A stretch of DNA of 64,000 bases from Amoebophrya sp. A120 (taxonomy: Eukaryota > Protista > Dinoflagellata): NCBI GenBank assembly GCA_905178155.1, contig CAJINV010000012.1, positions 1,802,492-1,866,491 on the forward strand, given 5' to 3'. Every line of letters begins with the position of its first letter. The stretch's first letter is position 1. Shown one piece after another: positions 13,344-57,422 of this stretch. The translations under genes and the position numbers were made by a program. A model generated the notes under the pieces. The model saw only the letters and a program-made list of their open reading frames with translations, had not been told where the DNA came from and made no database searches.

Positions 13344-14240
13344 CTAAACAGAAAGAGTGTCGGCGCTGTAATCAGCACGCCTGATGATCACGTCCTCGGG
13401 GCGGTTGCTACCTAAGCCAGTTGCTCGGTCCATTGCGTACTGGCATACTTGGCTCAATAGATGCTCCGGAAAAAAATCTCTAAACCGCCTCGATTTTAGT
13501 TTAAACGGCCACGGCTTGGCGGCTACCCGCGTCGTGGTCGTGCCACCGCGCGCGGCAAGCGGTGGCGGCAGCATGTGTGCCGGATCCGGAGCTTCTCCAT
13601 GATGAAAATAATATTCCTCGCATAGAATACTATCCTGAGTAAAAACGTACCCACCCCAGAGTCAAGATGGGGATTTTGCAACACAAACCTCGGAGTTTTG
13701 CGAGTCATGCATGACAAGTTGCAGTCCGTAAGGTAGTGCAAGTGAGCAAGGAAAGCCGCATCACAAATCGATCTGCTGATCCTGTTTTACAGCATTACAA
13801 GTTCCCGAACACGATTGAAAATGCCTGTCATGGGGTTGCGCATCACAAATGTTTCTATCATGGCAAATCTGCATGACAACTCTGGGGTGGGGACGTTTTT
13901 ACTCAGGATAAATACGCTGAATTTCCTTCTTGTCCTCAGCTGGAGGATTCGCCTGTGGCCCATTCGAGGCCGTGTTTCCGCGTCCCGGCGTTCCTTGTGC
14001 TGGATTGTTCGCAGAACCTTCTACTTCCAAAAAGGGTGTTTCACGAGGACGACGACCTCCTCCATTTCCAAACGACGAACGGACCTGCAGCCGTAATGCG
14101 GACGCAACAGGACAGAGGAAGGACAAAGAGGACGCGACCGCAAAAATAACCAGCGCCGTCATTTGACGAGCGCGAGGTGGTTTATGGCAGGACACCCGAC
14201 CACCACACCTCCACAACGGAGACGGACTCAAGATCTCCAT
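13344..14240 (-). CDS. Small two-exon putative secreted protein
   Basis: MTALVIFAVASSLSFLCPVASA is signal-peptide-like. Removing 13631-13910 plus DR gives IQRI|LCEEYYFHHGEAPDPAHMLPPP in frame. Confidence 0.55.
13631..13910. mobile_element. Introner family C
   Basis: TATCCTGAGTAAAAACGT / ACGTTTTTACTCAGGATA perfect TIR; DR AATAC. Confidence 0.95.
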
Positions 14241-29008: not shown

Positions 29009-29884
29009 TCAATCGACTTCAAGATCGGCACACTCCGGAATAGGATCGAGGCCAGCCGCGAGGTCGAGCTTCTTGGAGTTTGCACATTTCCGCTCGTGCG
29101 TTTTTATACGACTCGCAGCGCCGACCTTCTTCTGGTAGGATCTGGGCCAGTCGATGGCGTGGACTGAGCAGCATGGGCAGGTAAGTTGTCTAGTGGTCCA
29201 CTTTTCGGCCCCGTCGGCAAGAAAACGTCGAGGCGGCAAAACGAGCCGCGCGGACTGCTTGTACGTCGGCGGTATGATGGATTGCCCCGATCGGCCGTAG
29301 ACAAATTCCTCGACCGGCATGCACGTCCCGTCCTGCTCCTTGACGAGACGCACAAACTCGCCCTGCTGGTGCAATCGTAAATGCGCGCGGAGCGCTCGTC
29401 TACTCCCCTTCAGATCGCAGCCGCACTCCTCGCAGTGTACAGCTCCAGCATCGTCTCTTGCAGTACTGTAGACGCCAGCGGAAGACTCAACAAGCTCACG
29501 CGTTTGGTTATCCGTGATCGACCCATCGAGAGCAACCTGCCGCGCCCGCAAGTCAACCAGACTGCGAGTGGCCTTCAAGACCGCTCGCTTCTTCGCCACC
29601 CGCGGCCGATCACCATACGAAGCGTCGTACTCCTGTTCCGTAATTCCGTGCTTCTTCAGCAACTTGTCAAACACCGCAGCAACACGCTCATCAGAAGTGG
29701 CCGAGGACCAGGACGGAAAAAACCAGTGCTGCATCGTGGCATCAATGTGCCACGCCCTCGTCCTCACGTACCAATCTCTCCTAGAGTCCTCCCCTACGTA
29801 GGAAGCAAAATCTGCAACAGGGATCTTCGCCGAGGCACACGCGTCAACAAAGACACACGTGAATAAAAGTAAGATTTGAATCAC
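29009..29884 (-). CDS. Intronless C2H2-type zinc-finger protein
   Basis: 291-aa ORF with CEECGCDLKGSRRALRAHLRLH and CPCC..KTHERKC; true start uncertain. Confidence 0.6.
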   Translation of the reverse strand: MIQILLLFTCVFVDACASAKIPVADFASYVGEDSRRDWYVRTRAWHIDATMQHWFFPSWSSATSDERVAAVFDKLLKKHGITEQEYDASYGDRPRVAKKRAVLKATRSLVDLRARQVALDGSITDNQTRELVESSAGVYSTARDDAGAVHCEECGCDLKGSRRALRAHLRLHQQGEFVRLVKEQDGTCMPVEEFVYGRSGQSIIPPTYKQSARLVLPPRRFLADGAEKWTTRQLTCPCCSVHAIDWPRSYQKKVGAASRIKTHERKCANSKKLDLAAGLDPIPECADLEVD

Positions 29885-30315
29885 GACGGGTGCCAGCGCC
29901 GTAGAAGCTGGTGTTTGAGTTTTAAGTATTTGTACTTCTCATTCGCGTTGACTGATGAACAAAGTACCTGTGAGCTGAAGATGAATATAGAAATGTTTCC
30001 GTGGTAAAGTACTAGCGTTTCTCATTTTTTCCCCGCCGACATAGTGCCTTTTCCTCCTCTTCCTCCTGTACCGTTTTCGCCACTAACGATCCCCATCTCA
30101 CTGGCTCACTCTATTGAGGGCAAAACCCTGAATCAACAAGAACCCAGAACGTGTATTAAAACGCGACCCGAATCTTCATGCTGACGAAACAAATTGCCAT
30201 GCATAGAATTCTTGCAAATCAAGAGCATCACGACCATCTACTTCAGCATCCTGAAGATCATCGTCATTTACTGCACTAGCACTAGCAGCTGCTCTTATTT
30301 ATGACGTTCAGGATG

Positions 30316-30851
30316 TATATTTATGGACGGACAGATTACAAAAACCTGCGCATGGTTTTGCGCTGTACTTCTAGAAAACGCTAGAAGTAGATCAATCCGG
30401 TTCCGCTCAACGGTGGTCCCCTTGTTGCTGTTCATCATGGTGATTGGCAACACAAATACCAAGTTGATCGGTGGATGGTACCGGTTCAGGTAGCGGTAAA
30501 AATGGGGCTCCGGGAATGTTTGCATTACAATATTTGAACTCCATCGAAGGCAGAAAGCTCAAGATGATGCGACAGATGAGCTTCTTTTTGGCATGACATA
30601 TTCACATCGTGAGGAAAATTATGCTGCATGGCATCAGACTATTTGGAACCGCACCACCGCAGTGCCACCGTGGATAAGATTACTCTGCATAGTATACAAA
30701 ATGGCGGAATTTGTGATGCGACAGCGACTTTTTGCATGGATTTGTCATGCAAACTTCCCGAAAGCCCCAGTTTTACCAATCACCCGGTTCCGCGACGGTG
30801 CAAACACGGGGGGACGCGACCAATAGTTGTGGTTTAGAGGAGAGCCACAAC
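30316..30851 (+). repeat. Left segmented terminal inverted repeat
   Basis: Three blocks nearly identical to the reverse complement of 43953-44487. Confidence 0.95.
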
Positions 30852-32089
30852 TTTTCAGACGCCATTTTTCGAGGGTTTGTGGATACTTTTTCATGAAAAA
30901 CGACACGTATTCGGACGTGGACGAAACTGAACGACACCGAGTGGACGGGCAGCAAAGAGACGACAACGCGGACGCCGACGAGCACACCGAGATGCTGACA
31001 CGATGATGACGACGAGGCAGACGACGGTGACGATTTTGAGGCACGAAGCAGCACGCGCATCTGCCAGCGGAATGACACTGCAACAAGGCTGCACACTGAA
31101 CAACTTCGACCTCGCTGGAAGAGAAGCCAGAACACGGCACACGAATTTTGGGGCGTGTCTTCCCCATGAGAGATACAAACAAAACGACTTTGACATGGCG
31201 GGTCTGTCTCTACATATCAAGAGGTCTACAGGTGCCAAGCAGTTTGTAACTTTCGTTGTATTCAAGGCTGATTCGCTAGAAACTGCGAATGAGTAAAGCC
31301 ATATACTTCAATATTAGCCGTAGGTGGTTGAGGCAACAAATCTAACAAGAGCTGGTGCGTAAATTTGTGATGCTAATCATCGAGATCGACACACGACGAC
31401 GCGACGAGGCATTCCCGCAAAGATAGATCAATACCGATTGGGTGGGTAAAGCGAAACATTAACGACATGGCTCAAGAATGCTGTATCTTGGATTCGATTT
31501 GCAATCGCATCAGCAGCACTTCTATTAAACATTCGGATCACTTCGCTGCGAAGTCAGCTTTTAATTTCTAGGAAAACAAAACAACAACAAAAGGGAAGCA
31601 AGGCTACTTGTGAATCTCTTGTAATCGAAATAGTGCGACTGCGAGCTTGTCACTCAGGCGGACTGCTGCCCGCGAACGCGTCAGAGCTACCTCGTTGAGT
31701 GCTTTGGTTTATCGCTCGCACTGGTCATGGTCATGCTAGTAGGACCGAAGACGAAGAAACGGAAAGTGAAGGCGAATTGTCTTTACGTAGTGTTGATTCG
31801 TGTAAGTCGTTTCGAATCAAGTTTGTATTTCTAATTTTTATCCAGATAAGAAATTGGCCGCAGCTAAAAACTCGACTTGCTAGAACCACAAAGCACGACA
31901 AACAAAGATTTTAAAATTTCTAATGGTTGGCCGCGTGTATAAAACCGATTGTGCTTTTTTTTCTGTTGTTCCAGGCTTGGCCATTGTATAGAGACAAACT
32001 CAACCGATCGGAGGAAGCAGAGCACGAGTAAGCTTGTCTATAGTTACATCAGAGAGCGCGTCCCTGTATCCGATGAAGATCAAAAGCAG

Positions 32090-34836
32090 CTAGGCCTTCC
32101 CTTTGGCCTTTGCCTTTCCCTTCGACTTCGCCTTCTCCTGGACCGTATCGCTCCTGGCCTCCGGGCTGCTATCCCTGCTTCCGCTAGCCACGGACTTGCG
32201 CTTCGGGGGGATGAAGTTCTGCTCGCCGATGAGGTCCACCTCCTGGGACCTTCGCTTGTTTTTGGTGGGGATGTTGTAGGTGGACGTCAAGTTTTCCTCG
32301 TCCAACTCGCTTTCACTAGTGATTGCGTCGTGCCGCTGGAGCACTTTCTTTTTGCCCCGACTGCCGGCATTGGTGTTGACGGAGGAGTCGTTTTCGTTGT
32401 CGGTGTTCGAAGTGGAGGCAGTGGCTTTGTTGTTTCCCTTCAACTTTTCCTCCATCTCTTTTTTCATCTGCTCCATCTGCGCCTCGTACTTCATCTGCAG
32501 CTCGGCCTTCATTTTTTCGAAGTCATTATCGAAGAGCTTCTGCTTGGTTTTTTTTGCTCCCACCTCCAGCTCCGTGATCGCTTCTTCGTCCTTGGAAACC
32601 TTTTTGATGCCGATGGGCATCAGAGTTCTGATGCGGATGGTCCCGCTGCCCTCCTGCTTCTCGCGGATGTCGTCGATCTTTTCCAGACCCAAGTTCGCGC
32701 CGGCCTTCTCCTCCCGCGGAGACGCAAGGGGTTCCCCATTGTCGTCAAACAGGTAGGGCATGTCTTCAATCACCTGTGAGTTGAAGATGAGGCGCTGATT
32801 GGAAATTATGAAAATCACAAGTGTGCTTTTTTGAATTTGTGACGCAAGCGAAGCTGTGACGCGAAATCATTTGTGATGCAAAAAAATTCTAAAGACCGGG
32901 AGTAAGTTTAAAAATCGCAAAGAAGTAATACAATCGTCTGCTCGCGAAATTTGATTTCGGAAAACGGTTCCACCGTAGTCGGACGAAACTCCAGGCAGAG
33001 GTCGGACAGAAGTTCTCTGTACAGTTGCCACGGGTGGGCCTCCGGGATTTCAATTTCGTAGGGGAGCACGATTGGCGTTCTCATCGCCCATTCCAGCTTC
33101 TCATCTGTGCAGGTCTTCTTGCTGTAGAAGCTCGCTTTCGTGCCAGTCTTCGGGGGAAAGTCGTACTGCTGCGCGTAGCACGACGTATTAATCCGCATAT
33201 TGTCGGGCACCGTCTGGAGTGTGAGCGTGGTTTTATTTGTGTACCCAAATCAAAGGAGAAGGCCTTTCTTCCATACCACAAAAAGTCTGAAAATATATTT
33301 TCCAAATCAAAGCTTTTCTATGCTTCCACGTCAGAGTTTGCAAAAAAAGCCTATGACTCTGTACGGTGTAATTGATCTTAGCGGTGAGCCGGTTTTTGTA
33401 ATATTGGTCGTTTTCAATCTCCGTTTCCCGGGAGAGTAGCGCGCCCTGCGCAATCGTGTGGTCCTGGTGCAGCTTCGCTAAAATTTTCTTCATCTCCTCT
33501 TCGCTTTGCGGCTTTTCCACCATCTCGCTCTGCGATTCCGCCTGGTCGATGAATTCGTTCTTCAGAGCCGCTTTTGCGGTTTTCTTTTCCAATTTGTCCT
33601 TTCCCTTTTTCCAGTCGTTGTACTTTTTGCGGCGCTCCTTCCAGTCGTCCTGGAGTTCCCGCGCCTCGGTGTTGTACGCTTCCACCTCGGTCTTCTTCTG
33701 CTCGGCAATAACTTTCAGCTCCGGACTTTTCACCGCTTCCAGGACGATTCCGGGGACCTCGGTTCCCGCCTCGAACGTGTCCACGTCTTGTTCGAGACTC
33801 ACGAGGACGTGGGTGAATTTTTTGAAACCGCCGGAGGTTGGGGGAACTCTTCCCGTTCGCCGGACCACGGTAAAACTGCCGCGCGTGATCATGTTACTCA
33901 TGCCCGACCACAGTTCCGTTGTTCGTGACAGGTGGTTCAACTTGGACTGGATCTTGTTCTTTTTCACCAGCTCATCTTTGGCGAAGCACCACTCGATGGC
34001 ATCGCAGCAAGTTCCCGGAAGCCCCAGTTCCAGCGGAGTCGTTGCCGTCACGATGGAACTCGGTCCCTGGATTTCCTGTAGTGATTTGGTTTGATTTTAT
34101 TTTCATGATACAAAGGCAAGGACTCACTCGCATGAGAAATTTAATATGCATGACAGACAACAACCCCGAATGCTCACGCGCATGACAAACTCCAAAACAG
34201 AAGACACAGACAAGCTAAGCAAATAAATACGCTCCACAGGCAGCCACTGGCTCCGGCCGGAAATTTCGTGTCTTTCAGGCAGTTGTGCACCATTTGCCGA
34301 ACTCCGTAAACCAGCTGCTGGCTTCTCTTGTCCTCGGGAGAGGAGCCCGGCTGGACCATCTTTCGCATCAGCTCCTTGATCGTCTTCAACACGTCCGGCT
34401 TTATGGAAGTCAGGCCATCCTTTCCCGTGTACAGCCAGTAATACACCTGAATGTAGAAAGTTTTTTTTTACCGAAAAGCTTGCCACGAAAAAATAATTTT
34501 AGCATGGGAAGTTCTCAGCACACTCCTTCACTCCATCCATCACAAAACGAAAAGAAAGAAAATTAATTTTCGGACCCGCAAGGTGCAGATTTTGGTGCAA
34601 GTCGGCAGGTTCTTGATCTTAGTGGGGAAGACCGTTGATTTTGTCCATCCGGTCACTTTGGCATCGTTTGCTTTCGTGATCCGGGGCCGGATGTCGTTGG
34701 TCCACAGCTTCGCGTTGGGGTCATTCATCGAGAAGTCTCTGTAGATCTGCGCGCAAAGGCCCGGCTCCGAGGGGTTTGCCGTGGATTGGCAGTGCATCTG
34801 ATTGCCAATTAAAGTCTTAGGCTTGACTGTGCCCAT
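32090..34836 (-). CDS. Five-exon hypothetical protein with coiled-coil, Lys/Glu-rich segments (element cargo)
   Basis: ORFs 34540..34836, 34174..34446, 33233..34051, 32908..33210 and 32090..32818; CAG acceptors at about 34447, 34077, 33214 and 32774; no family recognised. Confidence 0.7.
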
Positions 34837-35261
34837 GATAAAATCTAATCGAAATAATCCGAATTATCAAGCTCGAAATACGGCCGACGTCACAAATGCA
34901 AGTTTGAAAATCTCCGACGGGTCGCTTTATCAAAATGAGCTTCATCTTCATGGGGCAAACGAGAAAAATCATGCCTGCTCTCGATCATTGAAGAAACAAA
35001 AATAATCATGACGCACCTTGTTGCATGCGTATTCGGTCATGCGTTCCGCAGGCTCAGTTGTTTTCTTGTGCTCCGCATAGTTCGCCTTTAACTGATTTTT
35101 TTTTTTCAAAATTTCATTGATGGTTGACAGGGTTTCGATGAGCTGCTGTCATGCAGCACAACTTTATCGAAAACAAAAGCGCGCCCCTGATTTTCTGAAA
35201 GTAACTCTATCACCTAGTCAGAAAAATAGCATCTCTCTCTTCACCAAGGCAATGAAACAAC

Positions 35262-35996
35262 ATGGGCGGCAGTGTGAACGCGACAACAGATAGAAGGGGG
35301 GGCGGAGTAAGGAAGACCAAAAAACAGCAGAAAGCTAAGGCGATGCAAAGCAAAACGCCCCCGCCTGAAATCGAAGAGATTGGCGCGGGGGATGGGGCGG
35401 AGCGGTCTGGATCATTGGAGATTCCTGATTGCAAGAGATTTGGCACCGCCCTCGGAAAATCAACCGGCCGAAAAAAATGGGCGGGGCAACTGTACGAGCT
35501 TTGCTCGTCATTACAAGTGCTAACGGGCAGAAGAGGCGCCGACATCCGGCTTCTGGAGCTAAGCGACGTAACGGCCACCTATGTACGCGTTGGGAACAGC
35601 AAGTGCGCCAAAGAGGCAGGGGGCCGCGGGCAGATCAAACAGGTGCCGATCTCCCCGGAGCCAAAAACTGCGGACTTCATCAAGAAAACTCTTGACGAAT
35701 GTCGGAAGTACCTTCTTCCGAATGATCGCATTTTTCAGTTCGGCTATGAAGCGTTCGAAAAAAAAATCAGAGCTGTCCGGGCTAACTTCCGACCGCTCTC
35801 CCCGAATAGCTGCCCGGCGACATTGATCACCAGTCACACCCCCCGACGTTCCCTGGCAAGCCACTTATGGCGGAAGGGCGTTGCGATTTCGACCATCCAG
35901 GCAATCACAGGACACACCTCCGCCGAGGTGCTGGCCCGCTACATCAATGCCGACTTCGGGTGGCAAAGAGAAGCCGCGCGCGTTGTGGGCTTTTAG
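35262..35996 (+). CDS. Tyrosine recombinase (phage-integrase family catalytic domain)
   Basis: Ordered catalytic residues TGRRGADI (R), NSKCAK (K), SHTPRRS (HxxR), TGHTS (H) and LARY (Y); the only credible plus-strand gene; start uncertain. Confidence 0.9.
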   Translation: MGGSVNATTDRRGGGVRKTKKQQKAKAMQSKTPPPEIEEIGAGDGAERSGSLEIPDCKRFGTALGKSTGRKKWAGQLYELCSSLQVLTGRRGADIRLLELSDVTATYVRVGNSKCAKEAGGRGQIKQVPISPEPKTADFIKKTLDECRKYLLPNDRIFQFGYEAFEKKIRAVRANFRPLSPNSCPATLITSHTPRRSLASHLWRKGVAISTIQAITGHTSAEVLARYINADFGWQREAARVVGF

Positions 35997-36023
35997 TGCA
36001 AGACGCTAGAACTCCGAGTGGAG

Positions 36024-36055
36024 ATTTTACTTAGGCCGCCGGACCCAAATAAAAT
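36024..36055 (+). other. Putative recombination site 1 (12+8+12 bp)
   Basis: ATTTTACTTAGG-CCGCCGGA-CCCAAATAAAAT. Confidence 0.6.
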
Positions 36056-36135
36056 TTTTTTCAGGAATTGCTGTTCTAAATAAAAACGACAAAAAAAGTA
36101 CTGGCGCTGGTTTTGAAGGGAATGCTTGCACTCGA

Positions 36136-37035
36136 CTAGGAAAAGAAGCAAAGTACCTCCGGGAAGATTGTGGTCACGCGCTCGATCCAGGTCGCCGCAA
36201 GTTGCTTTCCTGTTTCGTTCGAGGATCTGATCACCACGCTTACCAGTTCCTCACACTCTTCGATTTTGTCGCTTAGCACCGTCAACCTGTTTTCGGTAAG
36301 TTTGTTTGCTATAGAAAAACGAGATGTCCACGCACAGAATCTCATATTCAAAAAACGCATGCGCTCTTGGTGTCAGCAACATCGTCATGCTTATGAATGA
36401 TCGGCACTGGAGGTTGAGCGCCGCGTATCCGGCCGGGTTTTCCTTTCGAAATCGTTTTGCTGCGTGCTGGGAATGGTTGCCGATGAGACACAGGAGAGCC
36501 GGATCGGGTAGCATCTTCCGGATCACCGTGATCGCTGATTTTGATGCTAAAACGATGAGCAGCAGTTTTTGCATGATGAAAGAATTTGCATAAGAAATTA
36601 AAAGCAAAAGTCTTTGCATGATGATAGAAGTCGCCTCGTGCATGACAAATTCAAAAAAAAATAAGTACCTTCTTTTTGTTCGTATCTCATCGCCCGCATT
36701 TCGTTGTGTAAGGTGCCGACATGTCCGGGGGAACGGAGCTTATTGAGATAGTATTCAATTATCATGTCCAGCTCCTCGTCCGACATACGGCGTTCAATGG
36801 GTTGCCCGCGTTCGTGGAACCGCTGGACAAACTGCCGCAGCTGCGGGCGAGAGATCTTGTTCCCCATGTAATAGAGGCGGACGACGATCTGCGATTCGAT
36901 TAACGTCGGAAGCGGCAGTGTGTTGCTGCACAGCTCGTTGGCGATCTTGGTCGATCCATCAGGTCCCAAATACGGATCCAATAGAGCTCTGTCGAACTCT
37001 TGGGCGATTGCGTCTGCCCGTAGTGTTGGCGGCAT
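36136..37035 (-). CDS. Three-exon helical hypothetical protein, convergent with the recombinase
   Basis: Exons about 37035-36669, 36546-36391 and 36308-36136; GT-AG join QKE|ASKSAITV is in frame; second intron probably GC-AG. Confidence 0.65.
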
Positions 37036-37341
37036 TTTTGTCCTACAACAAAGGAAAATGCACTTTTTTTACACAGGAAAACTACAGAAGATAGTCAGAA
37101 AAAATTCAAAAAGCACAAGCACTGTAAGAGTGCCGACCAGAAGAAACGCACCCGCTAGCGCTATCACTTCGCGTCAAGTCCTACTATTTTACGCGGTGAG
37201 AACGTTGTATTTTGGTGGTGGATTCTTATGTGGCGAGGAGCTGCAGGCGGTTGAATTTACAAGGAAACTGGTATCGCGTGGACGTCTTGGAGGGAGATAT
37301 TACTAAGAAAGTGAAAGCTTTTTGGTCCGTCCAAAGTCAGG

Positions 37342-37476
37342 TCATCTAGAATCATTCTAGCCAAACCTCCGAAAATCTGCAAAATCTGTGGATTTTCTAG
37401 GAAAGTCGTCGACTTTCCTAGAAAGTAATCAATTTCTGAGAAAAATATGACCTTTGGCTAGAATGATTCTAGATGA
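37342..37476. repeat. Nested palindrome centred at 37409
   Basis: 24-bp perfect outer arms TCATCTAGAATCATTCTAGCCAAA (37342-37365 / 37453-37476); inner TTTCTAGGAAAGTCG-T-CGACTTTCCTAGAAA (37394-37424); both share one centre. Confidence 0.9.
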
Positions 37477-37922
37477 GACGACTTCGGGGCGACCATTTCG
37501 GAAGGATTTTCTCTTATGAATTGACGCCGGTGAACTACAAACGTCCATCTGGCGAGCCCTGTACGACCCGACTACTTCGTCTTCTAGATCGAGACTCTGC
37601 GTTCGGAGACAGGCACTTGGAGCACTTTTTGGAACATACTAGACCACTAGAAACCTCGCGTGGAACTGAAGTCGACGAGGAAAACGCCGCGGAAATGAGA
37701 CGCCCACGCTCGTGCTTTTTCTTGGTGTACAGGATCCGAATGCTACCAGATACGCGCTACAGATGCTGAAAAATCTACGAACCAGAAGCAGTGCTGAAAC
37801 TATTATACAGGTAGGCTTACAGCTTTTATCATACAGAATGAGACTTTTTTTCGAAGCAAAATAGAGCACATTTAATTTTTTTTCACAAAAATGCCCGCGC
37901 ATCGTTATGCCTACCCTCGTCG

Positions 37923-38195
37923 CTACTCATCGCCATCACTATCAGAATCCTCGACCAGTTTGTCATATTTCGTAGTAGAGTCTATGTATGTTTCCAGCGC
38001 TAAAGCAGCCGCATTCTCAAGATCTTCACTAGGTGGAACGACATCGACTTTCAAAAATTTTGCAACTGCCTTCATCAGGTCGTGCCGCGCAAGAGCGATA
38101 CTCGTTGCGTCGCGCTGTCGCTTTTTTGTGGTTCTGGCGAAGCACGGACTATGGAAAGAAAAACGCGTCTTCATTGATGTGGAGTAAGAGCGCAT
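37923..38195 (-). CDS. Small hypothetical protein with acidic tail (90 aa)
   Basis: ORF with protein-like composition only. Confidence 0.35.
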   Translation of the reverse strand: MRSYSTSMKTRFSFHSPCFARTTKKRQRDATSIALARHDLMKAVAKFLKVDVVPPSEDLENAAALALETYIDSTTKYDKLVEDSDSDGDE

Positions 38196-38199
38196 GGCG

Positions 38200-38317
38200 C
38201 TCCGAGTGAAGATTTTACTTAGGCCGGCGGACCTAAATAAAGTTTTTTTTAGGGATTGCGTTCTAAATAAATTTTTTATTTAGGTCCGGCGGCCTAAGTA
38301 AAATTTTCACTACGGGA
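38200..38317. repeat. Hairpin containing putative recombination sites 2 (38212-38243, +) and 3 (38273-38304, -)
   Basis: ATTTTACTTAGG-CCGGCGGA-CCTAAATAAAGT and reverse-complement ATTTTACTTAGG-CCGCCGGA-CCTAAATAAAAA; about 38200-38271 is also a direct repeat of about 36012-36085. Confidence 0.8.
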
Positions 38318-38319
38318 CA

Positions 38320-41300
38320 TCACCCATCCTTCTCCACATCAACGAAGCTCTTTTCCTGGTTGAGATAATTTACCCGGATCTCGTACTCCTCCGCCGGGAT
38401 GTCATGCACAGGGCTCTGTCTCTGACCGATTCGGACCGCGACGGCGCGGTTCGAATTTTTTGGAATGTGGGCGTGCCAGCAGGACCGCTCCGGTCGGTAG
38501 ATCACGCACACGACCGACAGCTCCGACTCTTGCAACAACTCGGGGCAGACAACCTGCTGAGAGACAGTGTCCCGCCACCGCACCTCCCGGGTTGTGCGCG
38601 TTTTCGTCGCGACGACATTCTGCAGAGCCACGTCCTCACTTGATTCCTGTTGCTTCTTCGGAATGAAAAACCCCTCCCGCTCATGCTGTTGCGACCGCCA
38701 ATCACGGGTGGAGACCGTGAACCGCACAGATGATCTCGCCTCGTCCCAGAAGATGCTGTACGACTCGCGGGGTAAAGTGTGGAACGTGAGCTGCTTCGTG
38801 TGCCTTCCCTTCTTCGGCTTCAACTCTCCGAGAGGATTTGCCGCCGAAGGTAAGGAGGAAACTATTCCGCTCAGGTCGATCCACTTGCTCAGCGTTTTTA
38901 CTTTTACGTCGGAAACGGAAAAGAGGAGGTCTTCCTGCTGCGGATTCAGCAACGAGTTGTTCTTGGAGTCGGGATCTGGATTGAGAAGCAAAAGCCACGC
39001 GCGGTTGTTGGCTGACTTGTTGAAGACGAGGTAGGTGGGCTCCCGTGCTTGTGCACGTTCGTCACCAGGGTTGGTGGTCTGGGCGGTTAGTAATGCGCCG
39101 AGCTGTAGTTCCTTCGCGAGCGTTGTTGCTGCTCCGGAAAAATGCTTAATCACGCAAGGAAGGTCCAGCGTTCGCCTGCAGATTTCTGGAACTTCCACCC
39201 TGCCGGCCGCGCCAATTGCTGTGCCGATCGTGCGGCCCTCGAGAAACTTATCAATCCAGCTTTTGTGCTTCTGGTTCATCTCCAACGCGTTCTCCAGAGC
39301 CGGATTAATTTTGTCTAAACCGTGGTCCCGCGCCTCGTCGGTGACGATCAGCTCGTGGACGAAAGGGGAAGCCTGAGAAAGTTCGGGCCGCTTTGTCCGG
39401 ATTGCTCTTCCCTCTTTGAACCGGAGGTCCGTGCTGCGCTTCCGCTCGTTTTCCAGTGGTTCAAATTCCGTCCAGGGCAACATCCGGTCGCGGGAGTTTT
39501 CGGCTCTCCATCCTGCTCTTTCGTGTCCGAGATTTGGCGCCGCACGGTGTTGGTTCGCGGAGGTGGATTGCAAACTTTCGACGAACTGCGCCATGGTGTG
39601 ACTGCCTATCATCAGCGGCGCGGTAATTTCGAAGAGCCCGTCACTCATCTTTCCGCCGTCGCGCATCTGCACCAAGTCCGCCTCGTACTTTTTGATGAAC
39701 ATCCCCACGAACAGGTCGCACTTGGTTAGGTCGAGAGAAAGAAGCAACGCCGCCGCGACGCTCTTTTTCTCTCCGTGGAGACCATGGATCAAAAACGGAA
39801 AGGCAAAGTATTGCTTTTCCCTGTCTGGCAATCGGACTAGTATCATGATGATGATGAGAAGCCCGAGCCTGTCGCCCTCGTGTCGACCATCAAAATACTT
39901 CCGAAGCAAATCCCTGTAAAACGACAGGTAGTGTCCGGAACTCCGTTTCTTCGACATCTCGGACAACGACGCATCAGACCACAGCAGTGTAGCATCCCGC
40001 TCCAGTCGGTTTGAGGCGTGGTCCAGCTCCTGCGCCTGCTCGTAAATTGTTCGCACACTTTTCCAGAACTCGTCCTTCAGTCCGTGCTGTCGGGCGGTAA
40101 TAGCTGTGGCACGGAGGTCCTGCTGCCTGTCTCCCGGCTTCAACAACTCCAAGCACGCGCGAACATTGCAAGTATGCACATCAACACCTCCGCAGCTGTA
40201 CAGAGAAATAGAAAACTTAGAAAAGCAAAACGCTTTTCTTTGTTCCAATGTAAAGAAATTTGTCATGCGTTTTTTTTTTGAGATGCAAAGAAACCATACA
40301 GCTGCGGGCATTTTGCAAAACATAATTCTCATTCGCAAGCAACTTCTCCAACGTCGGCGTCTGCGTGTTCCACCGCTCCGTGTAGAATTCGGGAATCGAG
40401 GGGACGTGATCCTGGAGCCACAACATCGCTGCCTTCTGCACCGCTTTGATGCCGGCAATAATTTCCGGGTGGAAGATGTTTAACATGGAATTTATTTCGT
40501 CACGAAGCAGGTGCAGCTGGTGGCCCATGCAGATGTAGTGGATGACGAAGTACTCCAAAAATTGGAAGTCGTGTATGTTATTTGGATTGGCCTGCTGCCG
40601 GTCGTACCGCTCGCGGTAGGTGCCGTACGCCCCCCGTCGCACTTTCTTCATTGCCTTCAGCTGATCGCTACCGCAATCAGTTGCAGCCGACATAATCACG
40701 ATCGGATCGCCGCGGAGTTCCAAAGTAGTCGAGCCGGGTAGTGGGACGCTGGGAATCATTTCGCACATGTCGTTGAGGACATGCTGCCACCCGGCCTTGT
40801 GTTTCCTCCCCGCTGGAACTATTGGCAGGACCTGGATCGTCCGCATCTTTCCGTTGGCGCGGATCAAAGCAACCTCCATGCTAATCAGACTGGAAGCCCG
40901 CTTGTATGGCGTCCCATCTGGTCCCAACCGCACGACGATTACTGGTCTGTAAATTGTCGCCGTTGCGACTATCAACCTCTCCGGATCGACGACTGTTACC
41001 CCTCGCCGCGAAACTTGCAGTCCGTCCGTGTTCTCTTCCACCGCGCCTACTACTTTTCCGGAAGCGTCGCGTTGGATCGTCGTAGTAGCGCGATGCAGCG
41101 ACGCGACGTCGCTGTCTGTGAAGCACTGCGCGTCCACATCGTTTCGGTACTCCCGGACACGGTGAACTAACTCTTCGGCCCGCTCCGCTGCCCTCCGGTA
41201 GGCGTCGTTCAGCAGCTTCACCTGTCGATCGTTTTCCGCTTTGAAGAACTCGTGATCTGCGAACGATTTGTTGTTCGACAACTCTACGAACTTCCTCCGT

Positions 41301-43000
41301 TTCGGTGCGGAGCTTTCGTCCACCGACGTCAAGACCTGCTCCTCCCCCCTCCAAACTTTCCGACCAACCCCGGCTTCGAGCATGACCTCTTTTTGGAGTC
41401 GCAGTCTCGACCTGTGCTGCGTCAGTTCCTCCGAGCCGAAAAAAATTTGCAACAGCTGAACCTGTGATGTGAAAGCAATGCAGTGGGATGAGTAAAATCT
41501 TGGAGAACAAATCGAACCAACAAGAAAAAAAACAGGCAAATCTGCGGCTTCGGGAAGTGTCAACTTTTATCATACACAAAACAAACCCAACCAAAGAGAT
41601 ACCTTCTTCGTGCAGGTTGCAGTCGAAATTCCCAAACAGTGCCGAAGATACAGCCACTGCCTGTCCGGGTTGTCTTTCAACGAATCGAAGACACTCCACT
41701 TCACCATCGTCGCAAACTGTTCCCGGATGTTGTTCTTCTTCCGCACCGTCTCCTGCTCATCTTCCGACAACTGCTGTTCCTCGGACCAATCGACGTCCAG
41801 CTTGTACTTGCGGAAAGCTTTCTGGTAGCGATCTCGCAGCCAAATTTCAGCAAACTCACGAAGCTGCTCAACTGTTAGACCCTTCCCGATTTTGATGCCG
41901 GTAACTTTCATCTTCAACTTGCAGGCACGCTGGACTTGCTCCAACGTCGGAAGCGTTTTTTTCTTCCACCCGGAGCCGTCGCTCTTCAGGTCCTCCTCAT
42001 CTTCAAACTGCATCGAAACCCACGCGAGCAGTTGGTAAATGTCCTGCCATGTTTTGGCTGCTGCAATACACTTTTCGACGAAGATGAGCTTGATTCTTTT
42101 TTGTCTCTGCACATCCTCGCGAACCGAATCAGAAGAGCTTGCCGCTGATGTCGACGACGTAGACGTGGAGAATGGCGATGGTTGCGCGACCACTGAAGAT
42201 GATGACGCAGATGATGAGGCACCTGCTGACGAGGATTGTATTGATGGCCCAGCTTCCAGCTGTGAAGTGGTTACCGGCGGAACCGCAGTGGTGGTGTTTT
42301 TCATAAACGACGTGATGCTGTCCATCAACGCCGCCGAATTTTTTTTGACCTGCGAGGCTGGGACTAGTGGCGGCTCGTCCGGCTTCAAGGTAAAGGCGCG
42401 TGCAACTACTGTGCAACAAAAAGCGAAACCAGATCTAGACGCACACGACAATTTTATCTAGGCCAACGGACCTAGATAAATTTTTTATCTAGGCCAACGG
42501 ACCTAAATAAAATTTTTTTCAGGCCTGAATGACAATCGGTTTTGTGTTGTCGTCTGGATGTGGTTTGCTTTTGCACTACTCATACATCTCCCAGGCAACA
42601 GTGCTGCCCCGGTACCCGTTGACGACGATGCACTCGACGACGACCCACCGGATGACGAAGAGCTGGATGAGGAGCAGCTACTTGATGATCCACCGGAAGA
42701 TGAGGAGCCACTACTGCTGCCACTGCTCCCGGACGAAGCGCTACTGCCCCGCCGCTTCTCGTCTTCGTCCTTTCCCGTCCTGAAGCTGATGTCGAATTCA
42801 GCATCAGGGTCTGACTCGGTAGGGGGAAAGATGGGGAAGAAGTCGCCCTGTTTTGCGCCCAACTTCAACTTCCCCGACAAGTTGCTACTACCAGCGGACG
42901 ACGACGCGGACTTGCCGGACTCATTGCGGCGCTTGGCTTTTGGCCCGGTCAACTTGGGCACCGTCCCCTTTCCCGGTATGTGCAGGTTAACGCGCGGCAT
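38320..43000 (-). CDS. Spliced hAT-like DDE transposase (~1400 aa, 4 exons)
   Basis: Ordered motifs IQRDAS (D1, tentative), AATDCGS (D2), ICMGHQLHL (CxxH), TERWNT (TRWNS-like) and QFVESLQS (E); exons about 43000-42586, 42409-41603, 41462-40300 and 40196-38320; exon 3/4 junction unresolved. Confidence 0.75.
42451..42513 (+). repeat. Tandem putative recombination sites 4 and 5 in transposase intron 1
   Basis: (A/T)TTTTATCTAGG-CCAACGGA-CCTA(G/A)ATAAA twice, 31-bp period. Confidence 0.75.
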
Positions 43001-43952
43001 TGTTGGGCGAACAAAAAAAAAAGCTTTGCTATCGAGGTGAAACTAGAGGACAAGTGGCGTAGTGGAAGATGCGAGACGAGGCGCAATTCTAGGCCCGTAA
43101 ACTACACAACACGTGCGACGAGTAGCCCCATTCTCTCAACGTTTCTTTCTGGCCGGATAGCGACCACAAGTCCCTCAGATGGCTTTGCGTGATTTATCGC
43201 TCAACGATGACGGAGCACAGACAAGATGGCAACAACCAGAGACGAGCACCCGACAAGAACTGTTTTTTACGACATCGGCAGTGCCAGAAGTTTAACGAGT
43301 CTGGTGCACAAATTTGGCAGGCTGTGTACCATGCAGCATAATCTTATGCACGACGCTGCTCTGCTCATCTTTTTAATGACTACTGTGCCGCGCAGTATAA
43401 TGTTACTCTGGGCGCTACTATAAGTCAGAAAAATGGACAACCTTTAGTGGTCTGCTTCGCCATCCTCTCCAGTCGCTGTGAGAATTGGAAGGCAACGGCG
43501 CCACAGATGAGAGGACTGGTTGCTCTCCGACCACCCACACGTCAGAAATGTGCCGGCAGCTGCCACATCGCGCACCGAAACCAAATGCCAGCACGTTGCT
43601 GCGTCGCCGGAGGACAAAGCTCCAGATCCGCACTTGTGGGCGCACATGTATTGTTTTGTTTTTGATTTTGGTTTTGTTTAATGATGATTGTTTTTGGTTT
43701 TGTTCAATGATGATACTCGATGCGCAACTAACCTCGCCAGCATCACAACGCCAAAAAACAAGCTTGATCTGCAGAGTCGACATCATCACCATGTACATGC
43801 TCACGACTTTCGCCTATCAATGTCTTATGTTGTTCATACCTTCAGGCCCATCTCCGAAAATCGAAACGCCGCATCTTCGCTTCCTGGTTTATCAAGTTCC
43901 GTTCCCCGAGCGGAATCGGGGCGGAACAGCGATCCCAACAGGCTTTTGAATC

Positions 43953-44487
43953 GTTGTGGTTCTCCTCTAAACCACAACTATTGGTCGCGTCCCCCCGTGT
44001 TTGCACCGTCGCGGAACCGGGTGATTGGTAAAACTGGGGCTTTCGGGAAGTTTGCATGGCAAATCCATGCAAATGACCATATTCCATACCATGCTGCATC
44101 ATCTTATGCACGACGACACTGCGGTCGTGTGCTTTTCATCACAGTCATACCCTGGGGAGTAATGTCATGCACGATGGTGCTCTATGCGCAGAAAAACCCA
44201 GTAGTCAAAGGCTTCAACGGGTACCATCATGAGTAGCACTATGCTCGATGGTGTTCGAATGCAAAGGATATTTGTAATGCAAACATTCCCGAAGCCCCAG
44301 TTTTACCGCTACCTGAACCGGGACCCTTCCACCGATCAACTTGGTATTTGTGTTGCAAATCGCGCGAACAAACGACGACGGTAGGACCAACTGCTGGAGG
44401 TTCCGGATTGATCTACTTCTAGCGTTTTCCAGAAGTACAGCGCAAAACCATGCGCAGGTTTTTGTAATCTGTCCGTCCATATGTATA
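43953..44487 (-). repeat. Right segmented terminal inverted repeat
   Basis: Reverse complement of the three left-end blocks. Confidence 0.95.
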
Positions 44488-44494
44488 TTCAAGT

Positions 44495-47400
44495 CTATGC
44501 CTCGTTCCACCAGTTGTGGTTCTGGTTTTGCTTTTGGTTCTTTTGAGCAATAAAAATGTTACAACTACGTCGTGGCTTTATTTCTGTTTTCCCCTCGATA
44601 GACAGGTTCGGCTGCTGCACCAAAACCACTCCGCCCGCATTGGTAGCGCCCGCGTTTTTCGCCATCGCCGACTGGATCATCTGCTCGACCTCCTCCTTGC
44701 TGGTATTGTGAGCAAAAATACCCCCACGGCCCCACACTCAAAGCGAAAGTTGTTCGTGATGCTGATTTGTGTCGCCTCAAATGCAACACAAAGCCGACTT
44801 GTGTACACAAATCCAGAAACAGAAGTATGTATGCGTTTTGAATATGGGATCGGGGGATTGTAGTTCATCTTGATAAGTGAGGCCGGTTCCCTTCTTGTCC
44901 GGGGATTCGTTCACGGCCGCCATGATAGACGACCCGAGGTTCCTATGCATTGCAAAAGTACTAGCGCCATCATCTTCTCGATAGTAGTAATTGCAATACA
45001 AATTTTAATTTTCGCTGCAACTTACTACAAGACAAGAAGTCGCGCAAGAAAAAATTACCATGCAGAGTCAGGAACAGAGAACGAGAAGACAGCTTCATCC
45101 TGCATAATTGTAATGCATCGATGAAGTAAGAAGTTGAAGTACTACGTAAGAGCGCGAAGATACAAGGACTTTTGCGCACCGTCGTAGCTCCCACTGCCGC
45201 TGATCGAGACGACCCGAGGTTGCAAAAGTTGATGTAGCGCCGTCAGCGCGATAGTAGTAATTGCAATACAAATTTTCGCTGCAAGAACTTATTACAAGAC
45301 AAAACGTCGCGCAACAAGAATTTACCATGTAGAGTCAGGGACAGGGCAGACAGCTTTAATATCATGCAAAAGTGCATAGATGAAGTACTAGTACGAGAGT
45401 GATATGACAAGGACTTTTGCGCAGCGTCGTAGCTTATCAAATGCAAATATGTCTGGGGCAGGGGCAGGAAGTAGAATGCTAGGTTTGTCATGCACGGTTA
45501 GCATGGCTCGCAAGTCTGTCATGCACGCAACCCAAAAGGAAGAGCCACATTTCTCTGTCATTCAGAAACGCAGTTTGTAATGGAGATAGGCAAGACTATA
45601 CTAACTCCAAAACTTGTTATGCGTGGCTGTCAGTGAAGGCGTCCACATGATTCGCCAAACAGCATCACAAGTTTCCAGACCCAGACATATTTGCAATGGA
45701 TATAGCTCCCACTGCCGCTGATCGAGACGAAGCCAGATTTCAGGGCGACCAGCAGGACGACGAGCGTCACGACCATGTCACAGTATGCCGTGTACGCCAG
45801 GGCCAGACCATATGGCGTTCTCAAGCATTACCCTCTCAACTGTTACATGAATCTGTGATGCAATATATAGCAAAGGTGAAAGAGGCAACGTAGCGCGCTT
45901 TGCATCACAAATCGGGAGCGGATTGCCATGCTGTTGAGCGTATCGAAAATTTGTCATGCAAGGTAGCTTTCTCGTCGTGTGGAGGGCGATCAGGATTAGG
46001 CAGATTGCATGACGAATTCATGTATACAATTGAGAGTATAACGTTTGAAAATGCCATAGACCGAAGGCGTCGCCCGCGGCACGGCACTTCTTTGCGTTGT
46101 AGTAAAAGGCGTACGTGGTTCCCTCATTATCCCCGTTGTAGGATGGGCAGCCCCACTATCCACAGTAAATTTCCCGTACACGTACAAATGTGGTTTCTGC
46201 ATGACAAAACTTGCCTTCAATCATAGTGCAGCATGACAAGCTGGGCTCTGCAAGGTAGCGAAATTTGTCATGCATTTTGTACATGTAGAGAAAATTTACA
46301 TTGCATACCCACCACGAGGAAGTGTCCATGCTGTCCATCAGCGACCCGTCGATCCTCTCCTATCAACTGTAAAAATGTCTGGGTCTGGAAACTTGTGATG
46401 CTGAGTGGCGTAGCATGAGGAGGCCACAAGTGCTGGCTCAGCATGGCAAATTTATGAGCTTGTAGGTGTTGCCTATTCTGCATGACAAATTGCGTCTCCG
46501 CATGACAGAAAAATGCGGCTCTTGGGCAACGTACATGACAGATTTAATAGTAATGTCAGACAAGTATGACAAACATGCATTCTTCCAGACCCAGACATTT
46601 TTACATTTGATATCTCCTTGTTGTCGCCAATATGGCTTTCGCACCACTTCAAGTCCGAGCTGCTCAGGTCCGCCTTGCAAGAAGAGAAGCGAATGATAGA
46701 TACCTATTGATTGGTTGAATACGAAAAAGCATATGGTTATCGCATAATTTATCTACCTCTTACATCCACGAAATCGTATAACATTGAATTTCATCTTCGC
46801 GTCGTCTTCTATCGCAGTAGTAGAGCCTTAAACCAACACTGTATGCTTCATGCATCTGCAATATGATTGGACAAAATAACAAAAACGCAACAGCTCCTCC
46901 GACTTCGCGCAAACGGCTAAGTCGGGAAAATCCAGGAAATTCATGCGTATCTGTCACATGTGTACTTACTGCAAAGCTTTCAAATTCCGCCCAAAATTGA
47001 AAGCATTTGCAGCAGGCATGTGCGTTTTTGGCTTTAATTTGCAGCCTCTACAGTACACATGTGACGAATTTCTTGCGTTTTCCCGACTTAGCCGTTTGCG
47101 CGAAGTCGGAGGAGCTGTTGCATTTTTGTTATTTTGTCCAATCATAATCTGCAACAAGATCTACACGAAAATGAATCCGCGGCGTCATGAGCTCTGCGTA
47201 ACTAAACAATCATATCAAGTAGAAATCAATACCGTGTCCCCAACCGCGCTGCGGGTGTGCGGCGGGCGATGGCGTATTCGCAGTACCAGTAGCAGCCAAG
47301 GAGCGGAGCTGGGCCTGCAGGTCGTCCGGGATATATCGCAAGAAAAAACTGTTTCACTATGAACTTGTGATGCAGAAAATAAAACACAAAAGTGTTTGAT

Positions 47401-54206: not shown

Positions 54207-57200
54207 TTACAACAGCGGCCTTTGGTCAAAAGGTTTTTTCTCATCAAAAACCAAGCCGAATTTGTTCCAGCTCCCGTAGCACCGCAAGGCCTTGATGCTG
54301 CACAGTTCGACAATCGCCGCAGCCACATCCTCCTCAAAAGCCGCCATTTTGGGATCGTATTTCTGGAAACAGTGGATGAACACCTCTAGTGATATTCCCT
54401 TTTTGTTCGCGATTGTCAAGATTTCCTTCTCCGGTGTCTCCTCCGCTTGAATTTTCTCCATCGGCTATCCTGTGGAAAAGTAGTCGCGTCCCCGGCGATG
54501 ACCCAGGGCCAAGTGAAGTTAGGAACTTTTCTGTAACACAAATCTTTAGGCATTATTGGGAGCCACGCATGACAAGTTTCTCCCTGTAGTGTAGACGAGC
54601 AGTTTAGCCAGGAAACAAACATCACAAAGCCATCATCTCTTCATCCCGTTTGAAGCATCACAGATGTCAAAACACAACTAAAAGCGTTCGTTTTTTTCTC
54701 ATGGAGATGCGCATTACAAATGTGTCATGTCTGTAGATACAAAAAGTCTGCATGACATCTTCTTCATCAGCTCCGGGGCCCTCGTCGTGGGAACGTTTTT
54801 ATTTACACAGGATATTTGCTTGTTTCTCCGAATCAGATAGTACACTGATCGGATCAAATTGAACCAACATCGGCGCTTCCCCTTTTGCAAAATCTGCACA
54901 TCACACTTTTGGTCGAAATAAAACTGGCGGTGTTTCGCGAATTCCGTCTCGAAGAGCTGCAAGTTCCCCGAGTTTATCGCAATGGACAGATTTTCGTATT
55001 TGTCCTTCAAAATCTCGTAGAAGTCTCCATCGGTCAGCTCGTATGCAGTGCAAAAGCATGGTCTCGAGTTCGTAGTTGTTATTGTTCCAAAAATTATAAT
55101 TCATGTATCATGCCAAATCTTCTACTCTCTTAATACTTGAGCCAGCTGCAATACAAATTGATCCATGCATGCAATTCAGCAATACAAATTGATGCATGCA
55201 TGCAAGCAATTTCTACGAGCCGCGCGAGGGTGCTTTTGCAATGTGCATACTTCGGTGAGCGCTTTTTTGTAAAAGAAGTCCGGGCCACGGTCACCCCCGT
55301 TGGTGATGTTCGGGGTAGTCCTTATTTCTGCTTGATCATCTTGCGTCCCTGTTGCTGTTATTTCCGCTCCTATCAAATCAGATCGGACGTCATCTGGCTG
55401 AAAATTCCTCCCACACACTAACCTGACCGGCACGTACATCCGGAGCAAGATTCGCAATTGCCGCTGCATTGTGCTGCTTACCGCGGCCTCGTGGATTTTT
55501 TCCGCCGAAGATGTTGTAGTTGGGTCATTATCGACTTCTTCAGGTTGTTCTTGACTGACGTTGCCTGTATTTGTTTCTCCACCTCCACTCGAGGACTTCC
55601 CACTCTGTGCGGCCAGCACCACAAACTGTATCGCGTACTCCAACTTTCTGACGCATTCCGCCAATTTCCCCTGCGAAAGCAAAACCCTAGCGTACTCCAC
55701 GGCGAAGGGGTAGGAGATTTTGGGGTTCAAATAGCTCTATGCATTCTAATATAGGTCTGGAGCTCGAAAGTTGGAACCTGTAATGCTAGCGCTCGATACC
55801 TAGGAAATCTGTATTGCATGAAACCAACAAAAGTCGTAGCCTCTTTTGTACATGCATACGCTGGAGACGGAGAGTTGTCGTGCTAGGTTGCATTCGGAAC
55901 CGTTTCCATCATCCACATTTTAGCATCACAAGTTTCCAGATTCAGACCCAGACATATTTGCATTTGATAAGCTCAGGGCAAGTTTCGATTCCAACTGGTT
56001 CGTTATTGACTCCTCTTCCACCAAAAAACCGGCTTTCACCAACTCTTCCCGAGTCGATTTCGAGGGTAGCTGCTGGATCCGTTTGAAGGGGTGGAAAAAA
56101 TTCTCTAAAACGAACCGGGACAAATCTTCCTTCTGCAGTTTTCGGTACAGGAAGAGAAGCTCGGTGATTAGAAGGGTTTGAAACTGAACCATGACCGGGA
56201 GGTCGGACGCTTGATTCGGCAGTTTCCGTATGAATTGCAAAAGCAAAAGTATCGTATTCGTATACATGCATTACAAATTTCTTCAGCATGAGAAATAAAA
56301 TCTGTAATGCTGTTTTACCTTTAGAAAAAGATTTGTAATGCGTGGCTGCAATTACTACGAGTGCGATACTTTTGCACAGGATATTCCGCACCTCCTGCCG
56401 GTAAAACTCGGCCAGTTGCTCAAAATACCGGTCTCTGTCGTCGTTATGCATTGCAAAAGCATCGCACTCGTATTGCAATCATGCATTACAAATCTTTTTC
56501 TTAAGGTAAATCCGCATTACAAATTTTATCTTTCATGCTGAGGAACTTTGTAATGCATTTATATGACGAGTACGATACTTTTGCACAGGATAGTCGTCGT
56601 CGGAGGTTGATGCAGTAGTTGAGTCGGCCCAATTGCCGTCGCCGCTTGAGCTTGACGTCGGCGCATGATTCTTTGTCGTTGCGGCCGCCCCTGCAGCTGT
56701 GGGGAAGTTTTTTCGGAGCCTCTTGCACAGAAAATTTCCAACCTCGGACACGAAAGCGACGTAGTCATGCTGTTTCCTCTTCTCCACCATGCCAAGCAAG
56801 TGGCTTTCCAGCAGCAGCAGATTTTTGTTCACCGCAACGACCTGGTTACTATTTTGCTCGGTTTGGCTCGTCTCTTCATTGTACTTCTGAATACCGAAGG
56901 CCAGCACGGCTGCGAGCGTCTGCTGTAGATATCCTGAGTAAAAACGTCCCCACCCCATAGTCAAGTTCTTGGTAAATCTGCAACACAAATCTGCCAGGTT
57001 TGGGACTTATGCATGACAAGTTTCCATCTGCAGTGTAGTGCTGGTTAGCAAGGGATGCTGCATGAGAAAGCCACTTTCTCATCTTGTTTACAGCATTACA
57101 GATTCCAAAACACGATTGGAAATGCCTCTCGTAGAGCTGCGCATTGCAAACATTCCTGTAATCGCAAATCTGCATGACAACTCTGGGGTGGGGATGTTTT

Positions 57201-57422
57201 TACTCAGGATAGTAGATCCTGATTGTTCAACGCTTCAGCGAAGGTTTTGTCGGCGCCAGAAAGGCTCGGGTCGACCGGTTTCCGCTTGTTCGTGGTTGAC
57301 AAAACGGCCGCTGAATTTTGGAGTTTTGACCCTGAAGTAGATGCTGTAGAAGGAAAATTGTCAGACGGGAAAACCCCTTCAACGCGGCTGATGACCGCGT
57401 TGGCGTCGAGAGAGGAGAGCAT
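54207..57422 (-). CDS. PCID2: PCI-domain protein, PCID2/Thp1/CSN12-like; 7 exons
   Basis: QLRILLRMYVPVRLVCG, YENLSIAINSGNLQLFE, FNLIRSVY, ISLEVF and GLVFDEKKPF follow the PCID2 pattern; introners at 54466-54814, 55042-55249, 55738-55969, 56229-56383, 56445-56592 and 56930-57211. Confidence 0.75.
54466..54814. mobile_element. Introner family C-like
   Basis: TATCCTGTG / CACAGGATA; DR TCGGC/TTTGC. Confidence 0.7.
55042..55249. mobile_element. Introner family B-like
   Basis: DR GCTCG/CTTCG. Confidence 0.7.
55738..55969. mobile_element. Introner family A
   Basis: DR AGCTC. Confidence 0.85.
56229..56383. mobile_element. Introner family B (155 bp)
   Basis: DR TTCCG. Confidence 0.9.
56445..56592. 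mobile_element. Introner family B (148 bp)
   Basis: DR GTCGT. Confidence 0.9.
56930..57211. mobile_element. Introner family C
   Basis: DR GTAGA. Confidence 0.95.

Follow-up and report, generated by a model that had tools for sequence, protein, structure and literature searches.

Ciliate elements and MarCry are known examples of eukaryotic transposons in which a DDE transposase is accompanied by a tyrosine recombinase (YR); what the element described here adds is a set of candidate recombinase sites in predicted introns. According to the available parts of the papers cited here and below, the ciliate elements have palindromic terminal inverted repeats (TIRs) and encode both enzymes (PMC3464196), and MarCry likewise couples a YR with a DDE transposase (PMC13465315). 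The 64,000-nucleotide stretch of the Amoebophrya sp. A120 genome that we analyzed (the window) holds an element of 14,160 bp (positions 30322-44481), bounded at both ends by an exact 8-bp duplication, that resembles Tec of Euplotes and Sardine and Thon of Paramecium in all of these respects: its TIRs are palindromic, and it codes for both a YR and a DDE transposase. It differs from them in that their transposases are IS630/Tc1 DD35E enzymes, Tec excision has TA targets, and Sardine measures ~6.7 kb, whereas the Amoebophrya element has a CxxH-type, hAT-like enzyme, an 8-bp duplication, a length of 14 kb, and a YR gene that lies antisense in a predicted intron. Membership in the Tec/Sardine type was rejected because the D-E spacing is 329 aa and the duplication is 8 bp long instead of TA. 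The available parts of the literature on Tec, Sardine, Thon, and MarCry name neither target sites nor a role for the recombinase.

Other YR systems provide models for the sites themselves. Bacterial Tn4430 is a transposon that encodes a YR, TnpI, and carries an internal site, the IRS, with a core of 14-bp arms and a 4-bp spacer and with adjacent accessory motifs (PMC2847244); the Amoebophrya element also combines its own YR with internal sites that have inverted arms and accessory-like neighbors. Tn4430 belongs to the replicative Tn3 family and has one IRS with deletion selectivity, whereas here there are three arrays, and an inverted matched pair within one copy, in a eukaryotic host. The yeast 2-micron plasmid is, similarly, a eukaryotic selfish element whose YR, Flp, inverts a segment between head-to-head FRT sites (PMC6594588); that plasmid is episomal and uses inversion for amplification, whereas the present element is an integrated, single-copy transposon with predicted intronic sites and split genes. 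Cryptons share with MarCry and with our element the status of eukaryotic YR elements, and they have 4- to 6-bp direct repeats and lack TIRs and true target duplications (PMC13465315). Classification of the element, or of its YR-bearing intron, as a Crypton was rejected on the basis of the long TIRs, the 8-bp duplication, and the position of the sites on one side of the YR only. Comparison can also be made with FimB/FimE, FLEx alleles, and loxP/dif: the bacterial FimB and FimE are short YRs without a core-binding domain, and the Fim system flips a promoter; FLEx alleles are man-made and use intronic inverted sites to toggle a gene. Within the available open-license literature, we found neither a dinoflagellate hAT-like element that carries a YR nor a switch located in introns; the element may be listed in supplements to the papers on the Amoebophrya genome and on introners. 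One paper mentions rare Crypton introners and nothing of the present kind (PMC12130899).

The features on which our argument turns, in window coordinates, are the following.

35262..35996, plus strand: YR gene, 244 aa, catalytic domain alone (PF00589, E 6.8e-13)
36024..36055, plus strand: site 1 of array A, core CCGCCGGA, 28 bp past the YR stop codon
36054..36086, plus strand: site b', degenerate and accessory-like, 9-bp spacer, array A, position weight matrix (PWM) scores of 10.1 + 13.4 bits
38212..38243, plus strand: site 2, core CCGGCGGA, array B
38242..38273, plus strand: site b, degenerate, central in the 117-bp palindrome of array B
38273..38304, minus strand: site 3 of array B, core CCGCCGGA as read on the minus strand
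42451..42482, plus strand: site 4, core CCAACGGA, array C
42482..42513, plus strand: site 5, core CCAACGGA, array C, with a half site next to it at 42512-42523
37923..43000, minus strand: hAT-like DDE transposase gene, predicted 5 exons and 1,469 aa, all introns GT-AG, stop-free
38149..38386, minus strand: predicted 238-nt intron, the last of the transposase gene, with array B inside it
32090..37035, minus strand: gene B, predicted 9 exons and 976 aa, all introns GT-AG, no internal stop
35146..36156, minus strand: predicted gene B intron 3, 1,011 nt, GT-AG, holding the whole YR gene (antisense) and array A
36036..38292, no strand: would-be inverted segment between sites 1 and 3, spacer to spacer, with gene B exons 1-3, the central palindrome, and the last transposase exon

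A pattern search of the window placed five 32-bp sites at 36024, 38212, 38273 (minus strand), 42451, and 42482, each with one mismatch to the consensus on its best strand. The consensus gave 10 strand-matches (the 5 sites) in the window and none in 100 dinucleotide shuffles, and the five coordinates put forward in the original prediction hold, as do its statements that site 1 and the reversed site 3 share one spacer, that site 2 has its own, and that sites 4 and 5 share another. All cores read CC-NN-CGGA, and the dyad can be parsed as 12-8-12 or as 14-4-14. The sites have the form of YR sites of the lox, dif, or IRS type, with inverted 11- to 14-bp arms and an asymmetric 4- to 8-bp core. A PWM trained on the ten arms of the five full sites picked up two more paired sites of degenerate sequence, at 36054 and at 38242, together with one half site (42512), against a background of 0 to 2 weak pairs per shuffle in 20 shuffles. 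The sole paired match outside the element (position 1424; 7.6 + 4.4 bits) is at shuffle level and falls on the end of an introner, and neither the pattern search nor the PWM scan found a full site in the window outside 30322-44481. Together, the sites form three arrays with a period of 30 to 31 bp: array A (site 1 and b'), array B (2, b, and 3), and array C (4, 5, and the half site). Array B is a 117-bp palindrome with a hairpin energy of -42.9 kcal/mol. Each of sites 1, 2, and 3 has a degenerate site ~30 bp downstream in its own orientation, which for sites 1 and 3 lies on the inner side, a layout that resembles a core plus an accessory site.

The neighboring gene encodes what the original prediction had taken it for, a recombinase with its catalytic residues (R-K-H-R-H-Y) intact. 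The protein scores 49.2 bits against PF00589 (cutoff, 27.1), and R91, K114, H192, R195, H218, and Y227 are kept in all three aligned proteins, its own sequence included. Its closest relative is a gene model of Amoebophrya sp. AT5.2 (58%). The N-terminal 55 aa are of low complexity, as they are in protein P0001. In an NCBIfam search, the best matches were of the XerA/XerC type, all far under the cutoffs, and a likeness to FimB/FimE was not positive.

Two of the arrays fall in predicted introns of the transposase gene, the exons of which we place at 43000-42586, 42408-41603, 41461-40300, 40187-38387, and 38148-37923. The predicted protein matches AT5.2 proteins over its full length (best E, 2e-98), most of its relatives are AT5.2 gene models, its family having at least eight members there, and a full HMMER search gave 9 matches; word-based searches for long homologs found none, and P0012 was rejected as a homolog, being an unrelated repeat protein. 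Residues D589, D669, C718xxH721, RW771, and E998 align across homologs (RW771 and E998 being what we take to be the RW and distal-E motifs), and D669 and E998 are separated by 329 aa. An 8-bp target-site duplication, TIRs, and a DDE core with CxxH all agree with hAT; the first two are a hAT feature, and CxxH is common to several superfamilies (PMC4763223). No Pfam hAT profile or C-terminal hAT domain matched the exons or the 9 search matches, there was no PDB transposase match, and an ESM Atlas lead was P-element-like (0.80, a weak score). On its sequence, the enzyme is filed here as hAT-like and not as a member of hAT. The last exon was recognized through a 90-aa open reading frame (ORF) at 38195-37923 that aligns to the extreme C terminus of P0010 (z 10.9) and of P0005 (z 3.6); a free small gene at 37923-38195 was rejected. 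With the last exon added, the alignment reaches the C termini of P0010, P0005, P0013, and P0018 and outscores a read-through to 38320. Array B would thus lie in the last intron and array C, with sites 4 and 5, in predicted intron 1 (42585-42409). The original prediction had placed sites 1 to 3 just past the recombinase and transposase stop codons, which is correct for site 1, whereas sites 2 and 3 fall within the predicted last transposase intron.

Array A lies in a predicted intron of gene B. This gene aligns to residues 1381-1981 of P0006 (E 7e-16) and also to P0015 and P0008; its exons at 37035-36157 match the region after the transposase in the AT5.2 models P0015, P0008, and P0006, the last of which is matched at a later point by exons at 34081-32917. 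The alignment to P0008 and P0006 stays in register across the intron 3 junction at residue 212, and addition of exon 4 lengthened it by about 40 residues. Splice sites were picked by hand from in-frame candidates; for introns 4 and 6, two of eight combinations tried were open. The product of 36136-37035, originally viewed as a separate factor, is instead the N-terminal part of this predicted ~976-aa protein, homologs of which follow the transposase in AT5.2 models, and a free small gene there was rejected. Assignment of gene B to ParB was not supported (a ParB-like GxH motif was seen by eye only; Pfam and PDB gave no backing), and the ESM Atlas returned nothing for its first exon. Two structure predictions (mean pLDDT, 43.2 and 37.9) were too poor to use. 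All three arrays are thus predicted to be intronic.

The pattern of core identity points to one pair of sites. Cores are identical in 2 of the 10 site pairs, namely, 1 and 3, which are inverted with respect to each other over 2,249 bp, and 4 and 5, which are unsuitable because they lie 31 bp apart, too close together. None of the five well-spaced direct pairs matches (one or two mismatches each), whereas the cores of sites 1 and 3, inverted and identical as in an invertible switch, have 0 mismatches. Tyrosine recombinases require matching cores. That need is on record (PMC2847244), and since only sites 1 and 3 are both matched and well spaced, we tentatively favor a recombinase-operated off-switch, in which YR-mediated inversion between these two sites would disable both genes; we hold this with less than even confidence, with splicing, YR binding, recombination, and a regulatory role all taken as putative. 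The 32-bp dyads would be likely targets of the element's own YR, placed in predicted introns of the transposase gene and gene B. With the segment oriented as it is now, intact splicing is predicted for both genes (ON). The segment holds exons of both genes, so a flip would break both: upon inversion of the 2.25 kb, the transposase would lose its last 75 aa, and exons 1-3 of gene B would be separated from the rest of that gene (OFF). The YR gene is not part of the segment that would flip, and its product could restore the original orientation; the core mismatches in the five direct pairs would limit self-deletion. The confinement of sites within the window to the YR-bearing element and the position of array A in the predicted intron that holds the YR gene support targeting by this YR. 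The original prediction had already proposed inversion between sites 1 and 3; theirs is indeed the only identical-core pair at a workable distance, contigs show a single orientation, and the segment is not a cassette of two free ORFs but holds the last transposase exon and gene B exons 1-3. An attL/attR reading, in which sites 1 and 2 would flank a foreign cassette that had integrated, was rejected, as the segment between these two sites holds the element's own exons in AT5.2 order.

Several observations weigh against this reading. An N-terminal core-binding domain is typical of Cre, Xer, and Int, and none was found in the YR, in which profile matches start at residues 80-95. A 73-bp direct repeat (36012-36084 and 38200-38271; 90% identity) takes in sites 1 and 2 plus their flanks, and beside this flank identity the core mismatch between sites 1 and 2 is unremarkable; flank similarity as a trace of a past inversion was rejected, since simple duplication explains it. 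Array C has no distant partner, and a switch leaves it unexplained. The intron predictions vary in strength: the last transposase exon alone matched two of nine homologs; transposase exon 1 has no specific homology support, so that the array C intron is unproven and the array may instead lie ~120 bp upstream of a later ATG; and gene B exon 4 alone is weak (z 2.9 against P0008, -0.3 against P0006). The rough chance of all three arrays falling in introns is 0.06. Three RNA runs gave 4, 0, and 0 reads, too few to bear on expression or splicing; X3, X7, and X8 gave low-complexity matches only. Two DNA runs of one sample, possibly the source of the window, each gave one unbranched 13,177-bp contig with no differences, and the element interior had a depth like that of other contigs, indicating, for the contigs of this sample, one copy in one orientation. 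No inversion was seen in these contigs and no joints in run X2; each junction of an inversion would contribute just 8 new 31-mers, and rare forms are lost from contigs, so this excludes a common flip only.

The motif also extends beyond the element. It had originally been described as confined to it, which is true of the window and not true overall. One contig of DNA run X2, 128 bp long and at genome depth, aligns to array B along 46 bp with 7 differences and then runs on into further site-like sequence; no YR was seen on that contig. A metagenome motif scan returned three loci (L001, L002, and L003). Locus L002, which carries the introner families of the window (73 to 95% identity among the best 25 matches), includes, at 9997-10028 in a repeat-rich stretch, one complete site of related sequence whose core is of the same type; over its 12.4 kb there is no YR match, the related site being 2.4 kb from the contig end. 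An alignment scan of viral and metagenome contigs for the YR gave no loci and hence no layout to compare. These results, too, count against the switch. L001 and L003 are one GC-rich, bacterial-looking sequence without a YR match and were taken as chance; motif scans of viral contigs gave 0 matches, and a prokaryote scan gave 3 isolated matches without YR homology, taken as background. The motif is therefore a small family in the Amoebophrya genome, which either belongs to diverged relatives of this element or exists apart from it.

Among the other explanations, the one that survives best, a possible though doubtful one, is that the arrays are res-like, with the YR recombining an array with its twin on a second copy (in a dimeric circle, a sister chromatid, or a cointegrate-like form), as TnpI does at the IRS of Tn4430, the match between sites 1 and 3 being incidental. 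The core-plus-accessory layout and the 14-4-14 parse, as in the IRS, fit such a role; array-specific cores would mostly restrict each array to its own twin; and both the fixed orientation and array C are accounted for. A single site would suffice for this purpose, however. The hAT class moves by cut-and-paste and is not known to form cointegrates, and the element, with its hAT-like transposase and 8-bp duplication, is single copy.

We consider it rather unlikely that the dyads are operators that the YR, gene B product, or transposase binds and loops, repressing or pacing transcription or splicing with no productive strand exchange. One array lies near the 5' end of the transposase gene, another in its last intron, and another by the YR gene; the 30- to 31-bp, three-turn spacing fits cooperative binding, and orientation is invariant in contigs. 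Retention of the YR catalytic residues in all three aligned proteins argues the other way, and an oriented, asymmetric core would be superfluous.

It is less probable still that the arrays are small palindromic repeats of the introner or miniature inverted-repeat transposable element (MITE) type that landed in introns, or sites for another protein, and are unrelated to the YR. The genome is full of inverted-repeat introners, in one introner family the terminal repeat includes 11 bp that match the arm, sites of related sequence are present at L002 and on the 128-bp contig with no YR seen there, and array B is itself a 117-bp hairpin. In contrast, no full site occurs among the many host introns and introners in the other 50 kb, the arrays have no target duplication by eye, whereas that introner family has 5-bp duplications in three of four complete copies, and the L002 contig stops 2.4 kb past the site, beyond which a YR could lie.

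Amplification in the manner of the 2-micron plasmid, in which an excised circle would flip between inverted sites while replicating and so raise copy number, has in its favor the Flp/FRT-like layout of a YR with head-to-head matched sites (PMC6594588) and a large palindrome within the segment, but the single copy, the flat depth, and the failure to see a circle junction or to identify an origin or replication gene make it very improbable. Equally improbable is the alternative given in the original prediction, that the sites act as 3'-end signals for the YR and transposase genes, or a reading of them as polyadenylation signals of these genes: the right arms contain AATAAA and site 1 is 28 bp after the YR stop, but array B lies in a predicted intron and not after the transposase stop, the motif is missing from the host genes of the window, and dyad symmetry and a conserved core would be left unexplained, so that this alternative is largely removed.

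The ends and the center of the element comprise the following features.

30314..30321, no strand: left target-site duplication, TGTATATT, 8 bp, same as 44482-44489
30322..30863, plus strand: left TIR, about 520 to 540 bp
37323..37495, no strand: imperfect palindrome at the center (arms of 86 bp, 72%), in the space that separates the transposase stop from the gene B start
43941..44481, minus strand: right TIR
44482..44489, no strand: right target-site duplication, TGTATATT

Each TIR has a nested inverted repeat (30495-30777 and 44027-44307) around a diverged middle, with three outer blocks near-identical; the TIRs of Sardine and Thon have the same make-up of a nested inverted repeat and near-identical outer blocks (PMC3464196). 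The central palindrome, in the intergenic gap upstream of gene B, consists of three CTAG-bounded dyads and could be a binding site for the transposase or the gene B product or a MITE. The terminal repeat has a similar TCTAG dyad at 30366-30389, and TCTAG density is 1.9 per kb inside the element versus 1.1 per kb outside. Just outside the left end, a 291-aa ORF (29009-29884, minus strand) has no match in Pfam or PHROG and a second, diverged copy elsewhere in the genome at equal depth. To the right of the element, 44905-45434 contains two to three diverged tandem repeats of ~245 to 280 bp, next to an introner family of very high depth.

The window is rich in ~250-bp inverted-repeat introners, which have been described for Amoebophrya (PMC7789003). 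The family with an 11- to 12-bp arm match in its terminal repeat occurs at 13631-13910, 56930-57211, 19875-20158, and 1161-1438, with the end of a half copy at 59013, and from its 5-bp target duplications looks DDE mobilized; the arm match is probably coincidence, with a shared binding protein as the alternative. At L002, the stretch 9600-11130 is a repeat module in which three palindromic 98-bp units in tandem precede the related site, which lies among a repeated ~50-bp unit (9629, 10191, and 11079) and GGGTCC-rich tandem arrays. Proteins P0005 to P0010, P0013, P0015, and P0018 make up an unannotated AT5.2 family of 1,270- to 2,240-aa hAT-like transposases. The available part of the Amoebophrya genome report gives the number of putative transposases found as just two, both from the same one of its two strains (PMC7789003); the hAT-like AT5.2 family may have been missed there and is a candidate mobilizer for some repeats.

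We consider it possible, albeit distinctly uncertain, that the element contains a natural on/off switch, in which intronic lox-like sites would let its own YR reversibly disable and restore the transposase and a second gene, and with it a new, compact recombinase/site pair (about 190 aa of catalytic domain). The sequence itself gives the candidate sites, their cores, and the outcome that each pairing would have. If the reading is true, the activity of a transposase would be controlled at the level of DNA, a eukaryote would have yielded a small recombinase with a 32-bp site, and the element would be a natural counterpart of engineered conditional alleles.

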